Assembly: GCA_013360215.1 (NCBI GenBank)
Contig: JABWCP010000004.1
Location: 1 to 64,000, forward strand
Reading direction: 5' to 3'
Source: a bacterium
GTDB lineage: Bacteria; CLD3; SB21
Length of the DNA: 64,000 bases
Part shown: piece by piece, positions 3,667-38,203 of the stretch
How positions within the stretch are numbered: the stretch's first letter is position 1
How the letters are laid out: each line of letters opens with the position of its first letter
Made by a program: the position numbers and the translations under genes
Notes under the pieces: model-generated
What the model was told of the DNA's origin: nothing
The model's database searches: none
What the model saw: the letters and a program-made list of their open reading frames with translations, nothing else

Positions 3667-5784
3667 TTATTCCACGATGGTAAAATCAACTTCGCGTTTA
3701 TCGCGGTTGACACGGGCAACTTTGATGCGAATCCGATCACCGAGACGAAACGTTGCTTTTCGCCGCTGACCGGTCAGGCGGTAATTTTTTTCGTCAAACA
3801 CATAATAATCGCCTTTGAGATCGCGCACATGGATAAGCCCCTCGATGAGGTATTGGGATATCTCAACAAAAATACCGTATTGGATCACACCGCTGACGAT
3901 ACCGTCAAATTCTTCGCCCAAAAAGCGTTCAATAAATTCCGCTTGTTTCACCTTGATGGAATCGCGTTCCGCTTCCGTAGCGACGCGCTCCCGATCGGAA
4001 CAATGCCGCGCCATTTCCGGCAGTTTGGATGACCACCAGGCGATTCGTTCACGCAACATACCCGCGTTATACTCTTTGAGCATGCGATGCACGATCAAAT
4101 CCGGATAACGTCGGATGGGTGAGGTAAAATGCGAATAATAATCAAACGCTAAACCGAAGTGGCCGATATTTTTATCGGAATATTCCGCTTTGGCCATGGA
4201 GCGAATTGCCACTTTTTCGATCAGATTGTCCTCTTTGGAACCTTTTACCGATTCGATCACTTTCTGCACGTGTTTGGGTGTAAGCAAGTCCATGGATTTA
4301 GGCAGGTGTGTCGCATGACCGAGCACCTTCATCAGATGTACAAAATTCTCAAACTTTTCTTTGACGGGTTTATCGTGTACGCGATACAGAAAAGGTAATT
4401 CATTTTTTTTGCCGCCGAGGCCGATATGTTTGCTGACATATTGATTGGCCAAAAGCATAAACTCTTCGATCAAACGGTGAGCATCCAAACGCTCTTTGCG
4501 GTAGCATTCCACCGGAATGCCGTTTTCGTCCAACTTGAATTTGGTTTCCGGTGTGTCAAAATCTATGCTGCCTTCCGCCATCCGTTTTTTAGTAAGCCGT
4601 TTAGACAAAGCATACGCATCGGTAACCGCTTTTTTCACTTCCGGTGAAAGATTATCCAAAGGTTTGCCTTCGATGACTTGTTGCACTTCTTCATACGTAA
4701 ACCGTCGTTTGCTGTGAATAACCGTTTCTACGACATCATAATCCACGACATGCCCTTTGGCATCAATTTCCATAAAACAACTGTACGTGAGTTTATCCTC
4801 ATGGGGCCGAAGGCTGCACAACTCGTTAGAAAGTTTTTCCGGTAACATCGGTGTCACTTGATCAACCAGATACGTACTTGTTCCACGCTTGTAAGCTTCC
4901 CGGTCAAGTGCGGTGTTTTCGCGTACATAATAACTCACATCTGCGATATGTACGCCGAGAAGGGTGTGTCCTTGCGGACCTTCATCTATGGAAATCGCAT
5001 CATCAAAATCTTTGGCATCAAAAGGATCTATCGTAAAAACCAGTGCTGCACGAAAATCCAACCGCCGTGCGATTTCATCATCCGGTATAGTTGCCGGGAT
5101 ACGCGCACACTCCGCTTCGACCGCTTCCGGAAAATCAAAATGAATATCGTGCTGTTTGACCACCGACAAGACATCGACGCCTTTATCGCCGGGATAACCG
5201 ATGATTTCTATGATGGCGCCTTCGGGATTCAACGAAGGATCGTCCCATTTTTCCAAGGAAACCACCACTTTTTGTCCGTGTTTGGCGCCATTGGTTTTTT
5301 CAGGAGCCACATAAATATCCCGACGCAACCGGCGATCGTCGGGTATGACTACAAAAAAATCTCCGGTACTGTCCACCGTGCCCACGATGCGCGTCCGTGC
5401 ACGTTCTACGATGCCGATGATTTCGCCTTCGGGCCGCTTACCGGTTCGTTTACGGAGATAGGGAATCATCATCACCGTATCTTTATTCATCGCGGTTTTG
5501 AGCCGGGACGGTGAGATGAAAAAATCTTCTTCATATCCTTCGACCGTTACAAAACCCTCACCGGCTTTATTAATCGAAAGTGTTCCCGTCAACGACACGG
5601 CACGGGCAAAATACTTGTTACCCTTTTTTCCGATAGACCCCGAAGCAACGAGTTTCTGCAATATACCGTGGGCCTCGTCGTGCTGATCCGCCCGTATATG
5701 CAGTTCACGAAGTATATCTTTGGATTTGAAAGAAGACTGCGCGTTACTCTGCAGGAATTGTAAAATTTTTTGTTCTGGCAACAA
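3667..5784 (-). CDS. rnr: Ribonuclease R
   Basis: RNB motifs TIDPFDAKDFDDA, HIADVSYYV and HFTSPIRRYPDLIVHR; N-terminal CSDs and C-terminal S1 domain. Confidence 0.97.
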   Translation of the reverse strand: MLPEQKILQFLQSNAQSSFKSKDILRELHIRADQHDEAHGILQKLVASGSIGKKGNKYFARAVSLTGTLSINKAGEGFVTVEGYEEDFFISPSRLKTAMNKDTVMMIPYLRKRTGKRPEGEIIGIVERARTRIVGTVDSTGDFFVVIPDDRRLRRDIYVAPEKTNGAKHGQKVVVSLEKWDDPSLNPEGAIIEIIGYPGDKGVDVLSVVKQHDIHFDFPEAVEAECARIPATIPDDEIARRLDFRAALVFTIDPFDAKDFDDAISIDEGPQGHTLLGVHIADVSYYVRENTALDREAYKRGTSTYLVDQVTPMLPEKLSNELCSLRPHEDKLTYSCFMEIDAKGHVVDYDVVETVIHSKRRFTYEEVQQVIEGKPLDNLSPEVKKAVTDAYALSKRLTKKRMAEGSIDFDTPETKFKLDENGIPVECYRKERLDAHRLIEEFMLLANQYVSKHIGLGGKKNELPFLYRVHDKPVKEKFENFVHLMKVLGHATHLPKSMDLLTPKHVQKVIESVKGSKEDNLIEKVAIRSMAKAEYSDKNIGHFGLAFDYYSHFTSPIRRYPDLIVHRMLKEYNAGMLRERIAWWSSKLPEMARHCSDRERVATEAERDSIKVKQAEFIERFLGEEFDGIVSGVIQYGIFVEISQYLIEGLIHVRDLKGDYYVFDEKNYRLTGQRRKATFRLGDRIRIKVARVNRDKREVDFTIVE

Positions 5785-6009
5785 GGTGTTTTCCGGTTAT
5801 AAACAACCACCCGATGGGAATATTCCATACAGGATAAGACATCAAATCAAACAGGAAAATATAAGGCGGAATAAAGGCTTACACTAATGTTTTTATTGAA
5901 ATCTGAATATCCACTGCTAAATTAAATTTACGTTTGTTTGAACGATAATCACCCGATTCAACTCCGCTTATTATGAATTGTAGATTAAGTTGATTCTTCT
6001 ACATTTTTA

Positions 6010-6081
6010 TGGACACCCACATGCGCGGGTGAGACAATACGCATCCCACTGATCTGTCGTTCCCGCAAAAGCGGGAACCCA
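6010..6081. repeat. REP-like palindrome doublet (TGTC-tagged units A and B) downstream of GIY-YIG copy 1
   Basis: tggacacccacatgcgcgggtgagaca (6010-6036) and tgtcgttcccgcaaaagcgggaaccca (6055-6081), the latter abutting the stop codon. Confidence 0.85.
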
Positions 6082-6369
6082 TCATATAACATCATGATAT
6101 AAGTCTTCCCACGTTGGGTTCATTTTTTCTATTAATTCGATCTTCCAGGCTCTTCGCCATTTTTTAATTCGTTTTTCACGAGTGATGGCTTCTCGTATGT
6201 CATTAAATTGTTCGAAATACACAAGCGTATGAACCTTATACCGTGAAGTAAATCCGGGAACAATTTCGTTTTTATGTTCATACGTGCGTCGTATTAGGTT
6301 ATTCGTCACGCCCGTATAGAGCGTACCGTTACGTTTGCTGGCGAGAATATATACGTAATATGATTTCAT
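6082..6369 (-). CDS. Stand-alone GIY-YIG nuclease family protein (copy 1)
   Basis: YYVYIL...TLYTGVTNNLIRR.YEH...LVYFEQF...EA..RE.RIKKW; differs from 37408-37695 at 4 of 95 aa. Confidence 0.92.
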   Translation of the reverse strand: MKSYYVYILASKRNGTLYTGVTNNLIRRTYEHKNEIVPGFTSRYKVHTLVYFEQFNDIREAITREKRIKKWRRAWKIELIEKMNPTWEDLYHDVI

Positions 6370-6398
6370 TGAAAAAATTTGATTCTATTCTTGTCTTG

Positions 6399-6490
6399 TG
6401 GACACCCGCGTTCGCGGGTGAGACAATGCCAGAGTCTTCTGTCGTTCCCACGCATGCCCCGAGCAAAGTCGAAGGGAAAGCGGGAACTCA
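6399..6490. repeat. REP-like doublet upstream of GIY-YIG copy 1; unit B interrupted by a nested ...gag-N-gtcgaaggg repeat
   Basis: tggacacccgcgttcgcgggtgagaca (6399-6425), then tgtcgttcccacg[catgccccgagcaaagtcgaaggg]aaagcgggaactca (6440-6490). Confidence 0.85.
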
Positions 6491-6541
6491 CAACCATCTG
6501 TAAGTATGTAGAAACTATAATGCCAATCCTCAGTACAAACT

Positions 6542-7135
6542 TCAATCCTTCACACAACGAATGGAAAACCCGTCACCTTTACTGTCCCTTTTCAGATAGG
6601 CACTGCGGGTAACACTGTAGACGGTCAGATTCAACGCGTGATCTGTATCGCTCTCCGACGAGGACCAGAAGTTAGCGATGCCGCCGAGGTAGTTGTAAGG
6701 GCCGTAGCGGTCTCGACAACCGCCGAACAAAACGTGAAATGAGCAATCGCTGGTCTTAGTTAATTCGGAATAGGCCCCCTCTCTGTCTTCTCCAATGAAT
6801 TTCAGCATTTGTTCGAACTCACTCTTGCTAGGCAAATGCCAGCCTTTCGGTACCGCTCTCTTGGCCGCTTCCCAAGTGTACAGCTTTCCGTATTTCGCAC
6901 AGTTGGATATCTTGTCGTCATAGCAGTATGTACCCTCGCCGGCATCATAGTTCAGATTTTTCGCCATCCAGACCTGATTGCCGATCTCCACGGTTTTGTA
7001 AGTTCTCCCGTCCCGCGGGTCAGTAAAACTGCCGATTTTTGACTCACTCTTTTTCGTCGCATTCAGAATCATATTCGCAGCGAATTCATAATTTTTGTTA
7101 TTCACCGCATCCACGAGCGTGATCTTGTCTATCAT
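6542..7135 (-). CDS. FISUMP (Fibrobacter succinogenes major paralogous) domain; C-terminal part of a frameshifted caspase-FISUMP gene
   Basis: FTDPRDGRTYKTVEIGNQVWMAKNLNY...YGKLYTW...PKGWHLPS...FWSSS...GFSIRCVKD; the frame stays open upstream to the 8-bp repeat at 7201-7227. Confidence 0.85.
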   Translation of the reverse strand: MIDKITLVDAVNNKNYEFAANMILNATKKSESKIGSFTDPRDGRTYKTVEIGNQVWMAKNLNYDAGEGTYCYDDKISNCAKYGKLYTWEAAKRAVPKGWHLPSKSEFEQMLKFIGEDREGAYSELTKTSDCSFHVLFGGCRDRYGPYNYLGGIANFWSSSESDTDHALNLTVYSVTRSAYLKRDSKGDGFSIRCVKD

Positions 7136-7170
7136 CAGCTTCTGATCGGCGCTGAAGAGAAGCGTCGCAT

Positions 7171-8814
7171 TCAGGTCAAGTATGGACTCGTTGGCACGAA
7201 GCGTCTTCGCGTCTTCGCGTCTTCGCGCTGTGCATAGATTTTGGAATTGACCGTATTCTGAATGGGATTCTTGTCGCAGGAATCTATTTCTTGCGCCTCA
7301 ATCACCGTGACCGGGAAATATCCGCCGTCCACATTGTATGTACCGAGTTTGACCGATAGGCGATCCTTGAAGACATTGTATTTCTTGGAGGTGATGGCCG
7401 CGACTTCGTCCAAGAAGGCTTTCTTGCTTCGCGCTTTAAGCACTTCGTATTCATCGTCAACCTGTTTACGCCTTTGGTTATTGTTATACAGCCGCGTATT
7501 ATATTCCTGCTGAGTTTCGAATTCGCCTCTCGGTGTCTCGTCCACCGCCAGCGTGATAGCTTTTTGTTTCTGCTCGTCGAAATCTATTTCTACTTTCGCC
7601 ATCTTATCCTGAAGTTCACCGATGCGTTCGATGGCTTGAAGAAGCGTTATGCCGTAGCCTATCGTTACCTGTTTTTTCTTTTCTTCTACGATTCGGGCGA
7701 GAAGCTCCTGCTTGCGTTTGTTTTCTTCTATAGTTTTTTTCTGCTCTTCCAACCGTCTTGCCTCTTCGATTTCGGCCAGTTTTTTCTTTTCTTCAAGCGC
7801 AGACATCTGAGCTTTGAGTTCTTGCTGTTTTTTCAGATTTTCCAATCTGGCTTTTTCGTTCTTCTGATCTTCGAGTTGTTTGTTCTGATTTTGCAGTAGG
7901 GCGAGTTCCTTGGCCAGTACGTCTTCGGAATTCACGTTCTGAGCGGCTTTGGTGATGAAGACAAAATCACCCTCGCCGAGTAGGTTGCCGAATTGCGGGT
8001 TTTGTTTATGATTGCGATCGACGGCGTCACTGAAAACCTTCTTTGGAATGTATAGTCCGAGTTCGGAGGCAGTGATGTAGTTTTCAGTCTGTTCGAGTTT
8101 TTCGATCAGGCGACCGGTGAAGACGGAATGGCCTTGAGGCCCGCCATCAAGCACCTGTTCGCTTTTGCCTCCGGCGGTGAGTACCTGTCGGACATTGGAT
8201 GCGGTGATGGACTTGAGGTAGCTGTAGTCCACAGTTTTTTCTTTGACTTCCGCACCGCGCTTGAGCAGAGTGCCGGAATAACAAGCATCCATCACATAAA
8301 AAATATGCTTGGCTTTCAGCGTCTTTGAGATGTTATCGCGCAATTCGACCATGGAGACGTTTTTATACATCGCATCGTCACTGAAAGAGCCATCGGATGG
8401 AATGATGAATCCGACGTCTTCGCCGCCGATGCCGTTTTGGGTATATCCGTGGCCCGCAAAGAATACAAAAATCGCATCGTCCGGACCTGTCTTCGACAGA
8501 TCGCCCTGAAGAGTTTTCAGAATACTCTCTTTCGTGGCGTTTTCATCATAAAGCTCATAGAATTTGTCGAAAACGAATTTGTCTGAAAGAAGTTTCTTTA
8601 TGCCTTTGGCATCACTGACGGCGTTTTTGAGTTGTTGATTGAAATCCAAATTCTTATAGCGGTCAATGCCGATAATGACCGCGTAGGTTTTCTGGTACAG
8701 TGTGAGTTCCTGTGGAATTCCCTTTTGGTCTTTAGCGATAAGTTTTAGACCGCGCGTATCCTGGGCAAAAGCCGCGTCGGACACAAGAAGAATCAGGAGT
8801 AAGAAACGATTCAT
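7171..8814 (-). pseudogene. Exported caspase-like (peptidase C14) plus coiled-coil protein, truncated by a frameshift before its FISUMP domain
   Basis: Signal peptide; YAVIIGID.Y, FFAGHG (catalytic His) and MDACYSG (catalytic Cys). Removing one 8-bp unit at 7201-7227 fuses it in frame to 6542-7135. Confidence 0.8.
7201..7227. repeat. 8-bp tandem repeat (gcgtcttc)x3 + gcg
   Basis: gcgtcttcgcgtcttcgcgtcttcgcg read directly. Confidence 0.95.
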
Positions 8815-8964
8815 GTCACCCCCCCCGTTTGAATTGAGTTAAAAACGATTTTGACTGATATTGTTTGGCTGATATTGTAGTATCAATTGGCTAAAATGTA
8901 AGCGATGAAATGGCTGATTTCAAAGGAATTTTCCATCGAAAGGAATAGTTAGGTTTGCAGCTAA

Positions 8965-9085
8965 TGGACACCCGCGTTCGCGGGTGAGACAATACCAGAG
9001 TCTTCTGTCGTTCCCATAACTTGCCCCAAGACCTCGGCGTGAGTCACGCCATAGGCGTGATCGAACGCCAGCCGAGAGAAAACGC
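8965..9085. repeat. Third REP-like doublet with multi-level nested palindromes
   Basis: 8965-9016 matches 6399-6450 at 51/52 nt; the nested ggcgtgag-tcacgccataggcgtga-tcgaacgcc is shared with 37261-37300. Confidence 0.88.
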
Positions 9086-9144
9086 TTGTCATTATAAATT
9101 TGATTCTTTGGTCTTGTCATTACAAATACGCGGTTCTTGATAAT

Positions 9145-9179
9145 AAAAAACCGCCGGGTATTAATATCACACCCGGCGG
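9145..9179 (-). terminator. Rho-independent terminator of the amidase gene
   Basis: ccgccgggt/acccggcgg stem followed by T6 on the minus strand. Confidence 0.8.
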
Positions 9180-9211
9180 CTCTAAAATTTTGGTTTGAAA
9201 GTAAGTTATAG

Positions 9212-10879
9212 TTAGAAACGTAAACCCGGATGCCGCTTATGATAATCCGTCGCATCTTGGTATTGTTTGGCTAACGCTAAAATTTCAGCTTCACCGAAAA
9301 GTTTTCCCATAAAACACACGCTGGTTGGAAGATTACGTTCTGTAAATCCGTTAGGTACGACCACACACGGATGACCGGTCAAATTGGTAAGTATCAGGTT
9401 GTCGCCTTCAAACGGAGGAGCGATATATACATCTATCGTGTCCATCAGGCTTTGCATATCTTGAATAAGCTGAGTACGAATGCGATTGGCTTGAATATAT
9501 TCAACCGCCGGGATAAAGCGTGAAGCACGAAACACAGTGGGCCATGCGTTTTTTATTTGCCGAACAAGTTGATCATCCTTACCGCTGCGCGTCAGTTCGT
9601 CAAAAGCCGCCCCCGCCTCCGCCGATAAGATGATCGCCATATCATACACCGGATATTGCGGCAACTGGATCGGGGTCAATTTTGCACCCAGTTTTCTCAA
9701 TACAGCCAGCGTCGTATCGTAATAGGCTTTGCGCGTAGAATCTCTATCCATATCCGATTTCAGATACCCGATACGCAGATTGCTGATTTTCAAAGAAGCG
9801 TCGTAATTGAATGCCGCATCCACCAAGGTTTTATCCAAACCGTCCGGTCCGTACATAGCATTAAATATCAGTGCACAATCTTCCGCTGAACGTGCGATAG
9901 GCCCGATCTTATCCATTGACCAACTAAGTGCCATAGCACCATAACGACTTACACGACCATATGTCGGTCGCAGACCGCTCGTTCCGCATTCCGTCGAAGG
10001 AGATACGATCGAACCCCAGGTTTCAGTCCCGATTGCGAAAGGCAGCAATCCGGCTGAAACCGCCGACGCGGAGCCGGCCGATGAACCGCTTGATCCGCGT
10101 GTCGTATCCCAAGGATTACGCGTTTTACCGCCGTACCACACATCACCCCAAGCCAATTCGCCCATAGTTAATTTAGCAACAAGTACCGCTCCCGCTTCTT
10201 CCAATCTACGAACAACCGTCGCATCTTCGTCAATGAGTTGCTCTTTATATGGTACAGAGCCCCATGTCGTCTTATAACCTACCGTCGCCAGGAGATCTTT
10301 GACGCCGTAAGGAATGCCGTGCAATGGGCCGCGATATTTGCCTTGAGCAATTTCGGCGTCGGCTTTGCGTGCTTGTTTGATAGCTAATCCTTCGGTGATC
10401 GTAATCACATTTTCGAGTTTGGGCCCGTAACGTCGCAAACGATCTAAAAACATTTTGGTCAACAATTCAGACGTAACCTTTTTGTTTTTGATAAGCCACG
10501 CCAACTCACTGACCGAATAATACGCGAGATCCTCCAATGCCGGCGGCGGTATCACGTTATCCAAACGCGCCGGTTTGAATGATTTTTTATCCTGATCTAT
10601 TTTAAATCCGACGGGGATAGGATTGAACTGCAACGCCGGCGCAACGGAATTATCCAGTTTGATTTTTCGCATCGCTTCGTAGTTACCCAGCTGTTCCTGC
10701 AGAGACTCCAGCATCGAATCACGCTTGGCCTCGTTGAACTGCAATCCGAAAAGTTTCTCGGCGTGAGCGATCATATCTTTGGTTAGGGTTATTTTACCCT
10801 TTTCCTGCAATACCATACCAAGCAAAAGCACAGCGGTTATCGCGGAAATAAATAAAACGATCCGGCGAGTCGGTTTCAT
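9212..10879 (-). CDS. Exported amidase-signature family enzyme (GatA-like amidase)
   Basis: GPLHGIPYGVKD, SSGSSAGSASAV, GTETWGSIVSP; N-terminal signal/TM segment. Confidence 0.92.
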   Translation of the reverse strand: MKPTRRIVLFISAITAVLLLGMVLQEKGKITLTKDMIAHAEKLFGLQFNEAKRDSMLESLQEQLGNYEAMRKIKLDNSVAPALQFNPIPVGFKIDQDKKSFKPARLDNVIPPPALEDLAYYSVSELAWLIKNKKVTSELLTKMFLDRLRRYGPKLENVITITEGLAIKQARKADAEIAQGKYRGPLHGIPYGVKDLLATVGYKTTWGSVPYKEQLIDEDATVVRRLEEAGAVLVAKLTMGELAWGDVWYGGKTRNPWDTTRGSSGSSAGSASAVSAGLLPFAIGTETWGSIVSPSTECGTSGLRPTYGRVSRYGAMALSWSMDKIGPIARSAEDCALIFNAMYGPDGLDKTLVDAAFNYDASLKISNLRIGYLKSDMDRDSTRKAYYDTTLAVLRKLGAKLTPIQLPQYPVYDMAIILSAEAGAAFDELTRSGKDDQLVRQIKNAWPTVFRASRFIPAVEYIQANRIRTQLIQDMQSLMDTIDVYIAPPFEGDNLILTNLTGHPCVVVPNGFTERNLPTSVCFMGKLFGEAEILALAKQYQDATDYHKRHPGLRF

Positions 10880-37065: not shown

Positions 37066-37167
37066 ATGAAAAAGAACAACAACATATGTTATTACCGTTT
37101 AAATGGGCTTACCCTTCGTCGTCATACACGTATGGATCAAGCCAATCTGATATATTGGAGCGCATGA
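37066..37167 (+). CDS. 33-aa small ORF (leader peptide or small protein candidate)
   Basis: MKKNNNICYYRLNGLTLRRHTRMDQANLIYWSA; starts 8 nt after the -10 box and is followed by a terminator. Confidence 0.35.
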   Translation: MKKNNNICYYRLNGLTLRRHTRMDQANLIYWSA

Positions 37168-37197: not shown

Positions 37198-37229
37198 AAC
37201 CCCGGCTCCGTGAACAGCCGGGGTTTTTT
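37198..37229 (+). terminator. Rho-independent terminator/attenuator
   Basis: aaccccggct/agccggggtt stem followed by a T-run. Confidence 0.8.
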
Positions 37230-37242
37230 ATTATTAATGAGT

Positions 37243-37377
37243 AGGTTCTTGTTTCCCTTCGACTGGCGTTCGATCAAGCTTATGGCGTGACTCACACTGA
37301 GTTCTCAAGGCATGCGCGGGAACGACAATTCAGAATTTTGTGTTGTGTAGTGTCTCACCCGCGAACGCGGGTGTCCA
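37243..37377. repeat. REP-like doublet with nested palindromes upstream of GIY-YIG copy 2
   Basis: Reverse-complement homologue of 8965-9085 and 6399-6490; tgtctcacccgcgaacgcgggtgtcca at 37351-37377. Confidence 0.88.
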
Positions 37378-37407
37378 CAAGATAAGAATTGAACGAATTT
37401 TTTAAAA

Positions 37408-37695
37408 ATGAAAATTTTCTACGTTTATATTCTCGCCAGCAAACGTAACGGCACGCTCTATACAGGGGTGACGAATAACCTAATACGACGCATTTATGAA
37501 CATAAAAACGAAATTGTTCCCGGATTTACTTCACGGTATAAGGTTCATACGCTTGTGTATTTCGAACAATTTAATGACATACGCGAAGCCATTATCCGTG
37601 AAAAACGAATCAAAAAATGGCGAAGAGCATGGAAGATCGAATTAATTGAAAAAATGAACCCGACGTGGGAGGACTTATATCATGACGTTATATGA
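37408..37695 (+). CDS. Stand-alone GIY-YIG nuclease family protein (copy 2)
   Basis: 91/95 aa identical to 6082-6369. Confidence 0.92.
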   Translation: MKIFYVYILASKRNGTLYTGVTNNLIRRIYEHKNEIVPGFTSRYKVHTLVYFEQFNDIREAIIREKRIKKWRRAWKIELIEKMNPTWEDLYHDVI

Positions 37696-37786
37696 TGGGT
37701 TCCCACTTTCGTGGGAACGACTGATTAGTGACCTGCGTATTGTCGTCCCACCCGAGCCCTTCCCGCGAAAGCGGGAAGGGTGTACA
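37696..37786. repeat. REP-like doublet downstream of GIY-YIG copy 2
   Basis: tgggttcccactttcgtgggaacgac abuts the stop codon; the second unit carries a nested cccttcccgcgaaagcgggaaggg hairpin. Confidence 0.85.
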
Positions 37787-38203
37787 CAAAAAGGAACAAG
37801 GGAATTCTCATCAATGCATCGCCCTCAACATCGGCTTCCCGCTGCCTAACCCCAACAATTTTTAATTTTTATAAAACGCTTGATTTTTCTCTCATTATTG
37901 AAACAATTAAGTAGCAACTTACGTAAAGGTCTTTTACTTTTCCATTATGGCCCCTTTTTTTGGTTCTTTTCTTATCTATTTAGATATATAACCTTATGGC
38001 CGGTGTTATTTGATGGCTGTTATTTTTGATTACTTAGTTTCACTCATCTGATTTTATTGAATTTATACAAAAATATTTCTTTAAAACACTCGGCCGTATA
38101 TGTCTGAAATATGGCGACCGTGTAATTATGTTTTGTATCACCTTAAAAATTCTATAGAAATGTCATCACATCACATACGCTATTTTTAATGGAGTTTTCT
38201 GTT

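Follow-up and report, generated by a model that had tools for sequence, protein, structure and literature searches.

Two Ssn-type GIY-YIG nuclease cassettes enclosed by oriented hairpin doublets in the genome of an uncultured sludge bacterium

The window analysed here, a 64,000-nucleotide stretch of bacterial DNA, carries two copies (A and B) of a gene for a small GIY-YIG nuclease, each enclosed by doublets of oriented hairpins, and judged by sequence these are new members of the published Ssn GIY-YIG/hairpin system rather than a new system. On balance, we favour the interpretation that A and B are paralogous Ssn cassettes forming a weakly mobile, semi-parasitic unit. The window corresponds to C19:1-64000 (contig label in this analysis) of a genome of 3.72 Mb in 56 contigs, whose sequence was found in activated-sludge runs, the host being an uncultured sludge bacterium.

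Ssn proteins (cd10448) have been described as single-domain GIY-YIG proteins of ~94 aa flanked by oriented hairpins, with the hairpin motif SRM on at least one side in 71% and on both sides in 42% of homologues (Chenal et al. 2025, Nat Commun 16:2388, PMC11893778). In the same study, four homologues were found to bind and cut ssDNA only, a few nucleotides 5' of the hairpin, and to have no activity on dsDNA. For SsnA of Neisseria meningitidis (NMV_0044/NMB0047), whose hairpins are the NTS/SRM, mutation of the tag G or of the C following the stem blocks the enzyme (PMC11893778). The idea in the original prediction that the nuclease is the dedicated partner of CGTC/TGTC-tagged palindromes holds, the pairing being already published and biochemically tested (PMC11893778).

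Two ssn copies in different surroundings

The genes and hairpins in the window are as follows.

6009..6036, minus strand: A outer downstream hairpin, type 1, partly decayed, with an 18-nt spacer at 6037-6054 (ungapped search, fold)
6055..6081, plus strand: A inner downstream hairpin, type 2, adjoining the stop codon, tag away from the gene, 1 SRM mismatch (pattern search, fold)
6082..6369, minus strand: ssn copy A, single-domain GIY-YIG nuclease of 95 aa, Y7/Y18/R28/E65/N84 kept (Pfam, alignment, model)
6398..6425, minus strand: inner hairpin upstream of A (type 1), its tag facing away from the gene, fitting the published SRM without mismatch (pattern search, fold)
6426..6439, no strand: A upstream doublet spacer, 14 nt, predicted cut zone (cut position inferred from PMC11893778)
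6440..6491, plus strand: outer hairpin upstream of A (type 2), its loop containing a nested palindrome of a second family (fold, comparison)
8964..9087, no strand: solo doublet without a gene, oriented as A's doublets (comparison, pattern search)
8964..8991, minus strand: type 1 unit of the solo doublet, exact SRM match (pattern search)
9006..9087, plus strand: type 2 unit of the solo doublet, with a B-type nested insert (comparison)
37242..37327, minus strand: outer hairpin upstream of B (type 2), decayed and containing nested palindromes (comparison)
37351..37378, plus strand: inner hairpin upstream of B (type 1), the same sequence as in A, fitting the SRM without mismatch (pattern search)
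37408..37695, plus strand: ssn copy B, 95 aa, 96% identical to copy A (ORF, Pfam, comparison with copy A)
37696..37722, minus strand: B inner downstream hairpin, type 2, adjoining the stop codon, 3 SRM mismatches, tag G and post-stem C kept (ungapped search, fold)
37741..37787, plus strand: outer hairpin downstream of B (type 1), its loop containing another, nested hairpin core (fold, comparison)

PF01541 (GIY-YIG) scored above cut-off in both open reading frames and is the sole Pfam domain in each. Copy A lies between rnr on one side and Fib_succ_major and caspase genes on the other, and copy B between htpG and a BNR-repeat gene, so that the original prediction of a doublet-GIY-YIG-doublet arrangement occurring twice in unrelated contexts is borne out, with both reading frames real and the neighbours different. 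No further close ssn copies exist in the assembly, and both A and B are present in other sludge samples. Downstream of htpG, the leader at 37084-37124 could encode a very short peptide, with a short ATG-started frame at 37067, and a terminator-like hairpin follows that frame at 37201-37230.

The two genes differ at 21 nucleotides, which fall into 12 synonymous and 4 non-synonymous codons, matching the four amino acid and roughly a dozen synonymous differences counted earlier. By the Nei-Gojobori method, dS is 0.32, dN 0.026 and dN/dS 0.08 (Fisher p 2e-7). Both copies are under strong purifying selection, which agrees with the original reading, and both are still under selection; given a dS of 0.32, their duplication is old rather than recent. 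A run of 29 codons is identical between them (post-hoc p 0.025).

Identity of the family

As N. meningitidis SsnA was represented by a stand-in, an NTS-flanked homologue of Neisseria gonorrhoeae whose orthology to ssnA is inferred and whose frame, disrupted at the 5' end, was compared as is, the similarity is to be read as that to the stand-in: 55-56% identity to A and B over 94% cover, with E 1e-30. These values lie within the limits set for an Ssn assignment (E < 1e-10, at least 75% cover) for both copies, and the same query reached only 3e-9 and 4e-6 with the two other small GIY-YIG genes of the genome. The size of 95 aa, with PF01541 alone, likewise places them among the single-domain GIY-YIG proteins of less than 150 aa. 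A Wolbachia homologue is 57% identical. A and B resemble the Ssn/SRM pairs in their ~95-aa single domain, in 55-57% identity, in catalytic residues that are in register, and in oriented tag-stem-loop-CCA hairpins. In 98 aligned sequences, Y7 and E65 are invariant and Y18 is conserved in at least 90%, and the spacing of Y7/Y18/E65 equals that of the N. meningitidis cleavage residues Y6/Y17/E64 (PMC11893778).

An alignment-based structure model was obtained with a pLDDT of 96.5, and its best solved matches were all GIY-YIG proteins; it replaced a poor single-sequence fold (pLDDT 60). A sequence search of the PDB returned only distant UPF0213 and Slx1 entries and no Ssn structure. For A and B, no NCBIfam model matched above cut-off; the window held no Rfam match at gathering scores, and an annotated phage collection gave no match. 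Among viral contigs, 7 relatives were found at 56-59% identity. In a tree built by a quick method on 98 columns, with 61 of 109 forks open, support is limited to A and B being sisters, standing next to a relative of the same order, and lying apart from the genome's other two small GIY-YIG genes; the tree is too weak to prove transfer.

An exact SRM lies within 500 bp of both genes (6398-6425 and 37351-37378). Three units deviate from the SRM pattern, by 1, 1 and 3 mismatches, namely the two downstream units (A 1, B 3) and one more of the compared set, and the tag G and post-stem C are kept in all six intact units compared, as is the stem in the downstream units of A and B. By analogy with other Ssn proteins, the A/B protein very probably cleaves ssDNA 5' of its own hairpin.

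Anatomy of the hairpins

Along the gene, A and B share one order of parts: type-2 reversed, spacer, type-1 forward, leader, gene, type-2 reversed, spacer, type-1 forward. In both, the two doublets are direct repeats, each doublet has its tags inside, and the inner hairpin pair has its tags directed away from the gene. As described earlier, the stop codon adjoins a palindrome in each copy (6055-6081 and 37696-37722). The six uninterrupted units fold into 7-8-bp stems with 4-nt loops and a free tag and tail. Their tags are TGTC or AGTC, and none is GTAG. The earlier statement that all units have the form TGTC-NN-stem-loop-stem-CCA is roughly right, except that 37696-37722 begins with AGTC and that three of the four outer units (6440-6491, 37242-37327, 37741-37787) contain nested palindromes or are decayed.

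The gene-less third doublet at 8964-9087 had not been noted before. Its spacer equals A's at 13 of 14 nucleotides, and its nested insert is that of B; the upstream spacer of B is 23 nt long and unlike A's, and the inner upstream hairpin is common to A and B. Since A, B and the solo doublet share parts in different combinations, the three doublets are mosaics, which, together with the identical 29-codon run, points to recombination between copies. Palindromes are also nested within one another's loops, in as many as three levels and from at least three repeat families (6440-6491, 9006-9087, 37242-37327, 37741-37787, and upstream of a homologous locus, L002), and the innermost kind is found as well at C37:14561, C47:43079 and 43129, and C43:42074.

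These hairpins share much with the CGTC-tagged REPs, which include Neisseria dRS3 and Rickettsia RPE-4/6: Di Nocera et al. 2013 (PMC3733652) describe for them an unpaired 4-nt tag and a G+C-rich stem, and a 4-nt loop, a 3-nt tail, dimers and clusters are likewise common to both. In the folds, the six uninterrupted units show the features that define a CGTC REP, i.e., an unpaired YGTC-type tag, a G+C stem of ~8 bp, a 4-5-nt loop and a 3-nt tail. In contrast, the doublets here have tags inside (TT), an arrangement called rare for CGTC repeats in that paper, and the copy number is low. Compared with published Ssn systems, the window differs in its heterodimer doublets, which lie on both sides as direct repeats, in its tags (TGTCT- and TGTCG-, versus YGTCA-), in the palindromes nested in loops, and in its uncultured sludge host.

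Rarity of the hairpins in the genome

An ungapped search of the whole genome, allowing up to 6 mismatches, detected 8 type-1 and 6 type-2 units. Six of the 14 units lie on the window's contig; the others fall at one site on C18 and in an array that takes up the C4 end and the C49 start. Beyond the two cassettes, only three sites in 3.7 Mb have such hairpins: the solo doublet, the C4/C49 array and C18:37800. By a crude estimate, the chance of one gene end falling within 100 nt of such a hairpin cluster is 4e-4. As the units occur at so few sites, the flanking of ssn is not a by-product of abundance, and the concern attached to the original prediction, that abundant repeats would flank any gene by chance, is ruled out by the genome-wide count of 14 units. 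No hairpin expansion was seen in the genome, with 12 SRM-pattern matches versus 5-12 in 8 shuffles. In Neisseria, by comparison, the hairpins number in the hundreds, while here they are rare and two ssn copies share one genome. Selection on ssn has been maintained in a genome with hardly any further targets, which counts in favour of mobility.

The array (C4:98408-98730 and C49:1-290; L162, L163) ends two contigs and has a period of ~177-196 nt, each comprising a type-2 hairpin, tandem 19-nt half-hairpins and a type-1 hairpin. The two parts are probably a single array split by assembly; if the contigs join, its neighbours are a sigma-54 response regulator gene on one side and a CoA-binding-domain gene on the other. 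Its assembled flanks contain no ssn gene.

In the nearest relative, of the same order and 80% identical, all 10 pattern matches are clustered round its ssn gene. Position 5 of the tag is T here and in that relative, and A in three same-family genomes; resting on 2 genomes, this co-variation of tag and protein is weak. Metagenomes searched for the type-1 pattern yielded just 2 loci, which have the same sequence in the part compared, and neither has ssn within 1.2 kb.

Generality across homologous loci

The association of ssn with SRM is general, which answers a question that the original prediction had left for wider comparison. Of 591 homologous loci, the best 80, from named genomes, were surveyed, and 72 of them had 500 nt on both sides; among these best 80 of 591, an SRM is no more than 500 nt away on one side or both in 42/72 loci and on both sides in 28/72, at a density of 1.15 per kb near the gene and 0.049 per kb further out. 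None of the 16 loci below 50% identity had an SRM. In the same best 80 of 591, a looser hairpin detector raised the counts to 62/72 (at least one side) and 40/72 (both sides).

Orientation was followed in 86 loci, which are non-independent and were chosen by similarity to copy A; 68 have canonical units and 42 have units on both sides, and the inner tags point outward from the gene in 34 of these 42 two-sided loci. The Neisseria locus has the opposite inner orientation. Across the compared loci, the conserved core of the ssn cassette is the inner hairpin pair. Doublet-gene-doublet was rejected as the family-wide form, being found at 2 of 83 loci with a detector that misses nested or overlapping units, the window's own included. 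The type-1 units of the genome have a similar 4-mer just before the tag; a cassette boundary at the predicted cut site, to which this 4-mer would point, was nevertheless given up, as the cross-species comparison was flat, with no sharp conserved 3-4-nt block 5' of the tag in 68 loci (within-locus identity 0.30-0.36 at -4 to -2).

Signs of movement and of inheritance

The common sequence of A and B runs from outer hairpin to outer hairpin, with nothing convincing beyond. In relatives, no ssn match was found within 1.5-kb flanks beside rnr (17/17 loci, 2 with less than 500 nt on the relevant side) or beside htpG (17/17 loci, two being distant paralogues). One same-family genome (G004, locus L130) has preserved the synteny of htpG and the BNR gene, but the two are separated there by a DUF6364/PIN gene pair, and ssn is absent. 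The htpG-BNR interval thus receives small accessory units of different kinds, ssn B here and DUF6364/PIN there. In 8 of 11 hand-picked related pairs, no neighbouring gene was common, and for A/B only the repeats matched; in L004/L024, L078/L082 and L098/L106, DNA likeness is confined to the cassette and sets in at the upstream hairpin or slightly outside it. Likeness that stops at the hairpins could also come from selection on hairpin and gene with neutral decay of the flanks. The other 3 of the 11 pairs are syntenic, so ssn is also inherited vertically.

For A, no target duplication of at least 4 nt was found with either boundary pair; the inner boundary pair of B gave one 4-5-nt match, treated as chance. 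No empty allele of the A site was seen in contigs covering 4500-10500 from four sludge runs of four studies, and no second genome of the genus was among those searched. Strain variants occur in other sludge runs, with 7 substitutions upstream of rnr (5752-5878) and, in 3 of 4 runs, the loss of 8 nt at 7201, towards the end of the caspase-domain gene; copy A is kept in both cases. A joint from 6425 to 9029 in run X14, considered as a deletion of cargo genes, was rejected, as the contig has the letters of copy B and B's upstream doublet has the same order of parts. No support was found for a composite transposon with the Fib_succ_major and caspase genes between the solo doublet and A's doublets.

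Proposed mechanism and alternatives

The original prediction proposed that the nuclease spreads the palindromes along with its own gene. This is already a published hypothesis, since the authors of PMC11893778, in their discussion, likened NTS-ssnA-NTS to an insertion sequence, to IS200/IS605 and to REP-associated transposases. Such spread is plausible for the present cassettes, in view of the duplication together with the flanks and of the non-syntenic relatives. Among the openly readable papers on SsnA, dRS3 or REPIN with GIY-YIG, none was found that demonstrates Ssn-driven mobility.

In the weakly mobile, semi-parasitic unit that we favour, the 95-aa protein would bind the oriented hairpin (tag, 7-8-bp stem, 4-nt loop, C-C-A tail) in ssDNA, which could be presented by the lagging strand or by incoming or recombining DNA. 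By homology to four other Ssn proteins (PMC11893778), the hairpin strand would be cut ~3-4 nt 5' of the tag; the distance is 4 nt when counted from the 20-nt product and oligo of that study, and 3 nt (positions 21-22) according to its review file. As the inner tags point outward, the geometry predicts cuts just outside the gene-hairpin unit, one per strand, in the doublet spacers. The breaks would be repaired by host recombination with other hairpin copies, and such repair might occasionally insert a further copy of the cassette, or of a doublet, elsewhere and shuffle spacers and loops.

REPtrons with RAYT (TnpA-REP) resemble the ssn cassettes in that a small enzyme gene lies between its own palindrome doublets and acts on ssDNA hairpins; unlike those units, which have GTAG REPs and REPINs, the ssn unit has neither an HUH/Y1 transposase nor a GTAG tag. 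GIY-YIG enzymes are hydrolases without a covalent tyrosine intermediate, so that Ssn on its own cannot carry out the strand rejoining ascribed to RAYT. We know of no strand-transfer step for Ssn, and host functions would therefore have to do the joining.

A bolder reading, which we put forward tentatively, is that hairpin-ssn-hairpin is an autonomous mobile element whose sole enzyme is a GIY-YIG ssDNA nuclease, and that Ssn is the missing mobiliser of CGTC-type REPs. Guided by the outward tags, the enzyme would cut each strand once, immediately outside the unit, and the unit would land in pre-existing tags-inside doublets and so create the direct repeats of doublet-gene-doublet, as in A and B, and recombination between these repeats would leave a solo doublet such as 8964-9087.

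Somewhat unlikely is the explanation that ssn is kept by the host as a restriction gene against incoming SRM-bearing ssDNA (transformation, conjugation, filamentous phage), as SsnA is, with the second copy arising by ordinary repeat recombination and the enzyme taking no part in spread. It draws on the one function of the family that has been demonstrated in vivo, namely that ssnA of N. meningitidis lowers transformation by hairpin-bearing DNA, transformation being 5-fold higher without ssnA (PMC11893778). The strong purifying selection on A and B, their presence in other sludge samples and the existence of syntenic pairs also fit, and as the genome encodes a ComEC-type competence protein, a role in restricting incoming ssDNA is possible. 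However, the Neisseria mechanism needs hundreds of chromosomal NTS, and here there are three sites beyond the cassettes; moreover, it accounts neither for a gene enclosed by the cut sites of its own product, with a fixed outward orientation, nor for the changing position of that gene among relatives.

It is improbable that another enzyme (a Y1/HUH transposase or phage recombinase) moves cassette and hairpins in trans, with Ssn a passenger that recognises the ends: one Y1 transposase gene (PF01797) exists in the genome, on C32, and the introduction of PMC11893778 names dRS3 as the target of a phage recombinase, but the C32 gene has no such hairpin core within 1.5 kb, no target duplication appears with either boundary choice, no family of neighbouring genes turns up at more than 5 of the 95 loci, which argues against a dedicated partner enzyme, and Di Nocera 2013 (PMC3733652) reports for CGTC-tagged repeats no association with transposase genes and no dedicated enzyme.

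A second small GIY-YIG family

The two further small GIY-YIG genes of the genome, on C14 and C29, are 38-40% identical to the ssn copies. They are stand-alone GIY-YIG genes outside the Ssn group in the tree (L031, C29:10340-10555, minus strand, and L032, C14:133632-133847, minus strand; 96 and 103 aa, respectively), and are flanked by a different hairpin family, of the form stem-GAG-N-TCGAA-stem, which also occurs beside the relatives L016, L017 and L029. This is possibly a second nuclease-hairpin pairing beyond the SRM pattern. The GIY-YIG/hairpin cassettes of L031, L032 and L002 lie directly upstream of a type I restriction hsdS gene, and the preceding gene is hsdM in L031 and L002 and encodes an EcoEI-type R C-terminal domain in L032.

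Significance

What the locus adds to the Ssn family is the orientation bias, a model of landing pads and solo doublets, and selection on the gene without a genome-wide repeat family. As the repeats are rare in this genome, a genome-wide host role is a weaker explanation for that selection, which makes the genome useful for the question of mobility. The locus also contributes one more Ssn/SRM pair, with variant tags, to a family under development as site-specific ssDNA cutting tools, and its two natural paralogues and two hairpin types form a compact test set for specificity. If the mobility is true, it would answer how CGTC-tagged REPs spread, including Neisseria dRS3/NTS, Rickettsia RPE and Wolbachia repeats, and would define a form of transposition accomplished by a plain hydrolase and host repair.
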